The notes under the pieces are model-generated. The model was given only the letters and a program-made list of their open reading frames with translations, ran no database searches and was not told where the DNA came from. Shown here one piece after another: positions 35,004-35,582 of a stretch of 64,000 bases of DNA. Every line of letters starts with the position of its first letter. Position 1 is the first letter of the stretch. The position numbers were made by a program, and so were the translations under genes. Location: sequence record MN148435, one strand, 5' to 3'. This DNA comes from Shigella phage SGF2.

Positions 35004-35582
35004 TTAGTAAGACACGTCACCACTTGAATGGGACATGTTGCTCTTGACGAAGTAGCAATACTTGCCAAGACCTTCATTAATTTCTTGAAGCATACTCTGA
35101 TCGACAGGGTAGGTGGCTAAATCACCATCAAACTCATCCATCTTCTCAATAATACACATCAAGGTCATGCACATATCAGAGAGCATACCGTCCATGTCTA
35201 GATCAGCATTACCCTCTGAGAACCAAGCATGAGAGAGGTAGTTAGCTGCTGTAGCATCCACTTTAACACAGTGGTAACGCATACGTTCAGCAATACGATC
35301 TCCTACCTGTCGTGCGTAATCTTCCAGCTCATCAAACATACCATGAACACCCTGAAATCCTGCACCAGAGACGTTCCAGTGGTAGTTTTTAGCTTTGATA
35401 TGCAAGAGTTCCATGTTAGCTTGTAAGCAGCTTAGGATGTGTTCTAGGCTGTTTCCACTAATCATACCCTGCATTGTTTCAAGGCGAGAGATTGAAAGCT
35501 CAGACCGGTCTAACATATTATAGTCGACACGACCAATCTCAGGTAAATCAAAGACATTCTTATGCATTTGGGTTTTCTCCAT
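35004..35582 (-). CDS. Dps/ferritin-like protein
   Basis: KNYHWNVSGAGFQGVHGMFDELEDYARQVGDRIAERM resembles Dps ferroxidase-site helix pair; start taken at internal Met. Confidence 0.5.
   Translation of the reverse strand: MEKTQMHKNVFDLPEIGRVDYNMLDRSELSISRLETMQGMISGNSLEHILSCLQANMELLHIKAKNYHWNVSGAGFQGVHGMFDELEDYARQVGDRIAERMRYHCVKVDATAANYLSHAWFSEGNADLDMDGMLSDMCMTLMCIIEKMDEFDGDLATYPVDQSMLQEINEGLGKYCYFVKSNMSHSSGDVSY

Follow-up and report, generated by a model that had tools for sequence, protein, structure and literature searches.

Sequence analysis of a Dps-family mini-ferritin gene and its neighbour gp68 in a Kuravirus phage

Phage Dps genes and the identity of the Kuravirus protein

The closest described counterpart of the gene analysed here is gp67 of Escherichia phage SU10, which the SU10 genome paper of 2014 listed as a DPS-domain protein present in all five C3 podophages then sequenced (PMC4281155), and the Privateer paper of 2021 noted that Dps homologues are present in Kuravirus phages (PMC7881722). 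The SU10 orthologue (CDS67) was recovered by mass spectrometry with 35.8% coverage from 6 peptides, in a PEG-concentrated lysate that was not gradient-purified and that also yielded polymerase, sigma factor and PhoH (PMC4281155), and for Privateer, mass spectrometry likewise revealed the homologue in CsCl-purified material (PMC7881722). The Dps identity, its C3-wide conservation and detection of the protein were thus known already from these two papers. Elsewhere, Dps-like genes occur in Lactobacillus plantarum myophages and in the gut 'Gratiaviridae' and 'Flandersviridae', where they lie near DNA-metabolism genes and have been proposed to act against oxidative stress (PMC6669764, PMC8008677). 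These other phage Dps proteins form separate lineages, with 27-29% identity to the protein described here, and tblastn gave weak matches to the Synechococcus and Streptomyces phages S-SRM01 and MeganTheeKilla. The searchable literature holds genome-annotation remarks only, with no functional study or assay of any phage Dps, and published descriptions of gp67 end at the domain label, with ligands, charge and pairing with gp68 absent from them. To this record we add a check of the ferroxidase ligands, rejection of an integrase label, doubt about a DNA-binding label, an altered pore and a conserved putative gp68-dps operon.

We analysed a 64,000-nucleotide stretch of Shigella phage SGF2 (MN148435), hereafter the window. 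By sequence it is a Kuravirus (subfamily Gordonclarkvirinae), one of the phiEco32-like prolate C3 podophages; over the 5 kb around dps it shares 95-96% identity with Escherichia phages DE5, KM01, SU10 and a good many more, which bears out the phage origin of the gene put forward in the initial annotation. For the Dps protein, identity is 100% with a protein of Escherichia phage SR02 and 98.4% with SU10 gp67, which occupies the same genome position and shows no difference of substance. Expression of the protein has been shown by others for this 98%-identical SU10 orthologue.

The motif first recognised in the gene, KNYHWNVSGAGFQGVHGMFDELEDYARQVGDRIAERM, lies at 35390..35280 inside a minus-strand ORF that ends in TAA (35006..35004). 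The initial annotation had opened this frame at ATG 35582, which lacks a ribosome-binding (Shine-Dalgarno) site. We found that ATG 35567, in frame and 15 nt inside the earlier codon, shares bases with the stop codon of the preceding gene (ATGCATAA), is equivalent to the RefSeq start of SU10 gp067 and to the position at which most aligned homologues begin (MH(K/N)N...), and follows a GGAG with a 9-nt spacer. Together these features favour ATG 35567 and displace the earlier start, so that the product is probably of 187 aa and not 192 aa; residue numbers throughout refer to the 187-aa protein. This product has a mass of 21.2 kDa, a pI of 4.7, a net charge of about -15, and contains 5 Cys and 15 Met.

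Profile searches and predicted structure both pointed to the Dps family. The protein matches Pfam PF00210 (Ferritin) at E 2.6e-7 (31.1 bits versus a gathering cut-off of 24.5) and PHROG 3636 at E 2.7e-55 over the whole domain, and a sequence search of the PDB returned about 35 distinct Dps sequences at E < 0.001 (best 2.7e-9), led by M. smegmatis Dps2, B. subtilis MrgA and B. anthracis Dlp-2 (E about 1e-9), the sole non-Dps match being an NTF-2-like protein at chance level (E 0.62). A profile search recovered thousands of annotated Dps proteins. The AlphaFold2 model, computed from a 52-sequence alignment, has a mean pLDDT of 85 with the core above 92, and places helices at residues 41-65, 71-98, 107-112, 125-150 and 154-176, a Dps four-helix bundle with the short BC helix (107-112) in the long B-C loop and without the fifth, C-terminal ferritin helix. 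This subunit fold, BC helix included, has been described for Dps (PMC10002758). The best 50 Foldseek matches in the PDB comprise 49 Dps chains and the Dps-like PA4880 dodecamer, with TM-scores of 0.70-0.92 by target length. Because the input alignment contains Dps sequences, the model corroborates the family assignment and is no independent test of it. On profiles and predicted fold taken together we regard the gene as confirmed to be a genuine Dps-family mini-ferritin, in agreement with the initial annotation, which had called it Dps/ferritin-like and had looked to structure prediction for the four-helix bundle that the model now gives.

Within the family, the phage protein stands far from named members. 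An exhaustive search of 1.8 billion representatives gave 618 matches at E <= 0.001, of which merely 13 reach E <= 1e-10, suggesting that the phage Dps clade is a distant branch. Scores against the NCBIfam Dps equivalogs PRK09448 and DpsA fall below threshold (34.5 versus 114 bits and 32.2 versus 170 bits), and with scores so far under these cut-offs we do not call the protein an orthologue of the host or of any named bacterial Dps. On this evidence it is a distant family member and no orthologue of host Dps, and the phage gene was not recently acquired from the host.

In GenBank the gene very often appears as an integrase, and elsewhere as a hypothetical protein, a DNA-binding protein or a ferric iron binding protein; the records carrying 'integrase' or 'putative integrase' include those of KBNP1711, IME267, DE5, EC.W2-6, KF981730 (ECBP3_0069) and many others. 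The claim that the protein is an integrase has virtually no chance of being correct. The label itself is its sole support, whereas Ferritin is the only Pfam family matched at E values up to 10, a search in which no tyrosine- or serine-recombinase domain was found in the protein, and both the PDB sequence matches and the Foldseek matches are to Dps, in line with the four-helix bundle predicted for the fold. We therefore consider the label refuted, and it is an annotation error copied from record to record. Its correction is a practical gain, as the label wrongly implies a temperate lifestyle for strictly lytic phages and can bar them from therapeutic use.

Table 1. Features of the dps locus in the window, with positions of gp68 homologues in relatives
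Feature	Coordinates	Strand	Remarks
Dps-family mini-ferritin CDS	35004..35567	-	187 aa + stop; orthologue of SU10 gp67 / phiEco32 gp67
N-terminal extension, residues 1-40	35448..35567	-	Kuravirus-like Dps and few metagenomic relatives
Putative GGAG ribosome-binding site of dps	35577..35580	-	9 nt before ATG 35567; read from sequence
Helices A and B with ferroxidase site	35280..35390	-	invariant columns in alignments A1 and A2
Codon H63	35381..35379	-
Codon W64	35378..35376	-
Codon H75	35345..35343	-
Codon D79	35333..35331	-
Codon D90	35300..35298	-
Codon E94	35288..35286	-
gp68-like gene	35560..35889	-	109 aa, basic, PHROG 10984; stop overlaps dps start
gp68 homologues elsewhere	L003:3139-3423; L004:3109-3462; L005:3243-3590; L006:5679-6008; L010-L013:2501-27xx
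Candidate promoter element AAATGTATATA	35927..35937	-	~40 nt before gp68 ATG
Putative AGGAG ribosome-binding site of gp68	35900..35896	-
Terminator-like stem-loop	34967..34995	-	11 bp, -15.5 kcal/mol; 9 nt after dps stop
Weak terminator-like hairpin	35991..36006	-	just upstream of promoter, in end of preceding ORF; pattern scan
dCTP deaminase	36578..37111	-	upstream of gp68-dps
Three tandem paralogous small genes, PHROG 4939	35962..36171; 36171..36380; 36380..36577	-
59-aa very hydrophobic protein, PHROG 9296	34762..34941	-	between dps terminator and thioredoxin
Thioredoxin	34478..34753	-	downstream of dps
ThyX	33806..34462	-	downstream of thioredoxin
PhoH	31777..32514

Ferroxidase site, pore and termini

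We compared the protein with phage and metagenomic relatives in two alignments, A1 (24 sequences) and A2 (52 sequences), both of which include cellular Dps. H63, H75, D90 and E94 are invariant in A1 and A2 and correspond to H51, H63, D78 and E82 of E. coli Dps and to H31, H43, D58 and E62 of the Listeria protein; the E. coli and Listeria innocua Dps reference sequences used reproduce the published ligand numbering exactly. R95 is likewise invariant in both alignments. W64, beside the site, is invariant in A2 and is replaced by Phe in one metagenomic relative in A1; a Trp of this type adjoining the ferroxidase site is radical-trapping. Position 79 is Asp or Glu across the alignments, with Gln in one metagenomic relative. 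The initial annotation had read the motif as the paired ferroxidase-site helices of Dps proteins, a reading that the four invariant ligands support, and in comparison with cellular Dps no His/Asp/Glu ligand has been lost. Furthermore, dps is under strong purifying selection, with dN/dS values of 0.05-0.07 overall in comparisons with SU10, KBNP1711 and Bas89, and in the same three comparisons values of 0.03-0.05 for the core and 0.11-0.17 for the N-terminal 40 residues. We consider it highly probable that the protein belongs to the Dps family and carries a functional catalytic site.

In characterised Dps proteins the ligands lie between subunits, H2O2 is the preferred oxidant and the ferritin-like pores are negatively charged, a general rule supported by a Pseudomonas protein with pore aspartates D125, D129, D130 and D134 (PMC10002758). 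At the positions of these aspartates, which line the three-fold iron-entry pore at the turn between helices C and D, the phage protein has Pro154 and Ser158, the latter being Asn in related phages; the alignment has low identity in this region. Pro154 and Ser158 align with D126/D130 of Listeria, D142/D146 of E. coli and D138 of M. smegmatis Dps2, and we take D126/D130 in Listeria and D138 in Dps2 to be the reference pore aspartates. Three acidic residues are nearby, D156, E162 and E165, the last two pointing to the same face of the helix. With the pore aspartates replaced by Pro154 and Ser158, iron may enter more slowly or by another route.

The termini also depart from those of cellular Dps. 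Beyond the Kuravirus-like proteins, the N-terminal extension is found in the metagenomic relatives P0024, P0026 and P0030, and it is missing from the Dps of phages 7-11, Privateer and LAh_6. Within it, an S-x-x-R-L-(E/D)-x-M motif is conserved, and a helix is predicted with low confidence at residues 18-37. Residues 1-40 contain 4 K/R versus 6 D/E, giving no net positive charge, and the C-terminal tail, SNMSHSSGDVSY, has no basic residue, so that the Lys/Arg-rich N- or C-terminal tail of E. coli-type DNA-binding Dps was not found in the protein. The short N-termini of the 7-11, Privateer and LAh_6 proteins are slightly basic (for example MARDMIRSRPSLRR in Privateer and MLGARPKRP in 7-11). A link between the five Cys residues and the neighbouring thioredoxin was considered and set aside, as reasonable conservation was seen for just two of them, C138 and a Cys near position 46/47.

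These termini bear on the possibility that the protein mainly binds and compacts DNA, coating phage or host DNA in the manner of E. coli Dps on the nucleoid. The E. coli protein contacts DNA via its Lys-rich N-terminus, the family is named for DNA binding, and the short N-termini of the Privateer and 7-11 proteins do carry a few basic residues; in addition, the basic product of the upstream gene gp68, with a predicted KOW/Tudor/PWWP-like barrel of a kind that often binds nucleic acids, could supply the DNA contact. However, the protein itself has a net charge of -15 and a pI of 4.7, its first 40 residues are more acidic than basic, and its C-terminal tail offers no positive charge. DNA binding is moreover not universal among Dps proteins and is attributed to basic tails (PMC10002758). 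We judge DNA coating to be unlikely as the main function, and with no basic tail and a net charge of -15 the 'DNA-binding protein' label has no support in the sequence.

The gp68-dps unit and its genomic setting

Directly upstream of dps lies a gene whose homologues encode proteins of 80-115 aa that are uniformly basic (median pI 9.5, range 8.8-11.0). The predicted fold of gp68 is an SH3/KOW/Tudor/PWWP-like beta-barrel with a C-terminal helix. No Pfam family matched gp68, even at E 10, and no solved relative was found by sequence profile; a precomputed PF23835 label on a few gp68 homologues was not reproduced with our local copy of Pfam. A gp68 homologue is directly upstream of dps in 9 of 10 lineages, adjoining it in the window, Privateer, LAh_6 and the contigs L005, L006/L007 and L010-L013, the last four having been chosen through gp68 homology alone. 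The sole exception to adjacency is Salmonella phage 7-11, in which the homologue lies a few genes from dps. In six cases (the window, Privateer, LAh_6, L005, L006/L007 and L012) the two genes overlap by 1-8 nt or abut. In a phage database gp68 and dps are distributed alike (Escherichia 92/93, Aeromonas 11/11, Proteus 8/8, Salmonella 7/7 and Cronobacter 6/6), and the pair is shared by phages of Escherichia, Shigella, Aeromonas, Proteus, Salmonella and Cronobacter. We found no gp68 homologue in the Streptomyces or Synechococcus phages with a Dps.

The pair appears to have transcription signals of its own. Upstream of gp68, AAATGTATA (35937..35929) has one mismatch to the consensus tAATGTAtA, a promoter of one element only that the phiEco32 sigma factor gp36 recognises, and AATGTATATA is invariant in six diverged loci, among them metagenomic relatives whose Dps is 53-54% identical. 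As an exact match, TAATGTAT was not found near dps, and the candidate promoter is visible only with one mismatch allowed and the intergenic regions aligned. In phiEco32, gp36-dependent promoters have been mapped by experiment upstream of six genes, gene 68 among them (PMC8948821). The record of phage 7-11 equates phi32_61 with YP_001671806 and phi32_58 with YP_001671803; extending this accession series, phi32_67 would be the Dps (YP_001671812) and phi32_68 the gp68 homologue (YP_001671813). A sigma-70 scan returned 7 promoter-like sites versus 10.7 expected in shuffled sequence, and so no excess. Downstream, the terminator-like stem-loop behind dps has counterparts at the same position in L006 and L005, where non-homologous stem-loops are followed by a U-run. 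Taken together, these elements suggest that gp68 and dps are transcribed as a middle unit of their own, discrete and conserved, with putative boundaries at the promoter element and the stem-loop.

The persistence of adjacency and coupling in otherwise rearranged genomes points to a functional link between gp68 and dps, although both could merely be core genes of one lineage. The two proteins might, for instance, make up a system particular to the prolate C3 podophages; in favour of this are the adjacency in 9 of 10 lineages, the overlaps, the unit's own putative promoter and terminator, the opposite charges and the matching distribution. In such a system gp68 might bind the highly acidic Dps cage and anchor it on DNA, on the replisome or on RNA polymerase, in place of the basic tail of cellular Dps; alternatively, it might gate iron entry or release at the cage. 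We hold this proposal as doubtful at present. The conserved unit provides a testable lead to a possible partner protein of the Dps cage.

The initial annotation had drawn attention to ThyX and thioredoxin nearby, and these are indeed the next functional genes downstream of dps. The tie is one of co-location only, and the terminator-like hairpin separates dps from both. In every relative examined (7-11, Privateer, LAh_6 and the metagenomic or genomic contigs L005-L007 and L010-L013), dps lies in a dNTP-synthesis module, surrounded by genes for dCTP deaminase, ThyX, thioredoxin or glutaredoxin, and PhoH. The anaerobic ribonucleotide reductase NrdD follows dps in the four contigs L010-L013 (in L010 with two Nmad5-domain genes between) and is in the same module in L005-L007, and the radical-SAM activase NrdG is present in L006/L007. 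In the window, neither NrdD nor NrdG was found among ORFs of at least 150 aa between 24 and 46 kb.

These neighbours raise the possibility that the protein stores iron and donates it to phage or host iron enzymes, for example to the Fe-S activase of anaerobic ribonucleotide reductase. NrdD behind dps in four distant relatives and the radical-SAM activase in L006/L007 would fit such a role, but dps is strongly constrained in the window, where the search described above returned no NrdD or NrdG, and we know of no release partner for Dps, which also counts against an iron donor. We regard this role as quite improbable, while noting that iron donation and detoxification are not mutually exclusive.

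Several further features of the region were observed. The three PHROG 4939 genes, located between dCTP deaminase and gp68, encode proteins of 65-69 aa, each ending in ...YY or ...HY, and SU10 has four small genes in that place. The PHROG 9296 protein has by its look two membrane-spanning segments. An HNH_3 homing-endonuclease-like ORF of 163 aa (30922..31413, minus strand) adjoins PhoH and is possibly a mobile insertion. The early region at 42172..47031 (minus strand) encodes a class-II glutamine amidotransferase (650 aa), an ATP-grasp-like protein (400 aa) with a weak D-Ala-D-Ala ligase match, and an amidoligase_2 protein (367 aa), a cluster that resembles a peptide or metabolite ligation system.

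Proposed role and comparison with cellular Dps

The reading that we favour is that the protein forms a Dps ferroxidase cage, made from a middle-phase unit, that protects against iron and peroxide during replication; we assign this explanation as a whole a probability of about 0.6. By homology, the protein would assemble into a hollow 12-subunit cage with ferroxidase centres at subunit pairs, each combining the helix A/B ligands H63 and H75 from one subunit with the helix B ligands D90 and E94 from its partner, next to W64. By analogy with cellular Dps, these centres would oxidise Fe2+, preferably with H2O2, and the Fe3+ would be stored in the cage, so that consumption of Fe2+ and H2O2 would remove both reactants of Fenton chemistry. 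Transcription would run from the phage-sigma promoter through gp68 and dps to the terminator in the middle phase, and the benefit would be that replicating phage DNA and redox-sensitive nucleotide enzymes are shielded from iron and peroxide damage. The position of dps among dNTP-synthesis genes, with the oxygen-sensitive NrdD in most relatives, supports the cage reading. The flavin-dependent ThyX has an oxidase side reaction that yields H2O2, which would provide a rationale for a link between Dps and ThyX. Detoxification of Fe2+ and H2O2 during replication is the most likely function, and for the specific physiological role we see roughly even odds. The roles put forward in the initial annotation, protection of DNA from oxidation and sequestration of iron, are likewise hypotheses.

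A different placement of the protein would be in or on the prolate head, where it could protect packaged DNA or enter the next host. The Privateer homologue was found in CsCl-purified virions, in work that verified ten predicted virion-associated proteins (PMC7881722), but a 12-mer loaded with iron would be dense and might just band alongside the virions. The SU10 protein, on the other hand, was detected in a PEG precipitate together with polymerase, sigma factor and PhoH, the SU10 virion study gives gp20-24 as the head contents and is silent on gp67 (PMC9509320), and dps is a middle gene of the replication module. A virion-associated role consequently appears very improbable to us.

The dps gene is a strongly constrained core gene of a whole phage lineage, several members of which are under development for therapy. 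If the protein is an active ferroxidase, these phages would manage the iron and peroxide chemistry of the infected cell during replication, and if this is true, phage yield would be affected wherever oxidants or iron cause stress, as in urine or the inflamed gut.

Compared with cellular proteins, the phage Dps shares with E. coli Dps the ligands H51, H63, D78 and E82 together with W52 and R83 (E. coli numbering), yet the two are only 17% identical and the Lys-rich N-terminal tail of the E. coli protein is missing from the phage protein. Co-assembly with host Dps was set aside at this level of identity. E. coli and Listeria Dps contain no Cys, in contrast to the five of the phage protein. The best matches are Listeria innocua Dps/Fri, Dlp-2, MrgA and M. 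smegmatis Dps2, at 20-27% identity and TM-scores of up to 0.9. With the tail-less Dps of the Listeria type the phage protein has the ferroxidase ligands and the Trp in common, and the Listeria subunit, at a charge of -12, is similarly acidic to that of the phage (-15). What distinguishes the phage protein from these Gram-positive and actinobacterial Dps proteins is some 40 extra residues at the N-terminus and a pore bearing Pro154 and Ser158.
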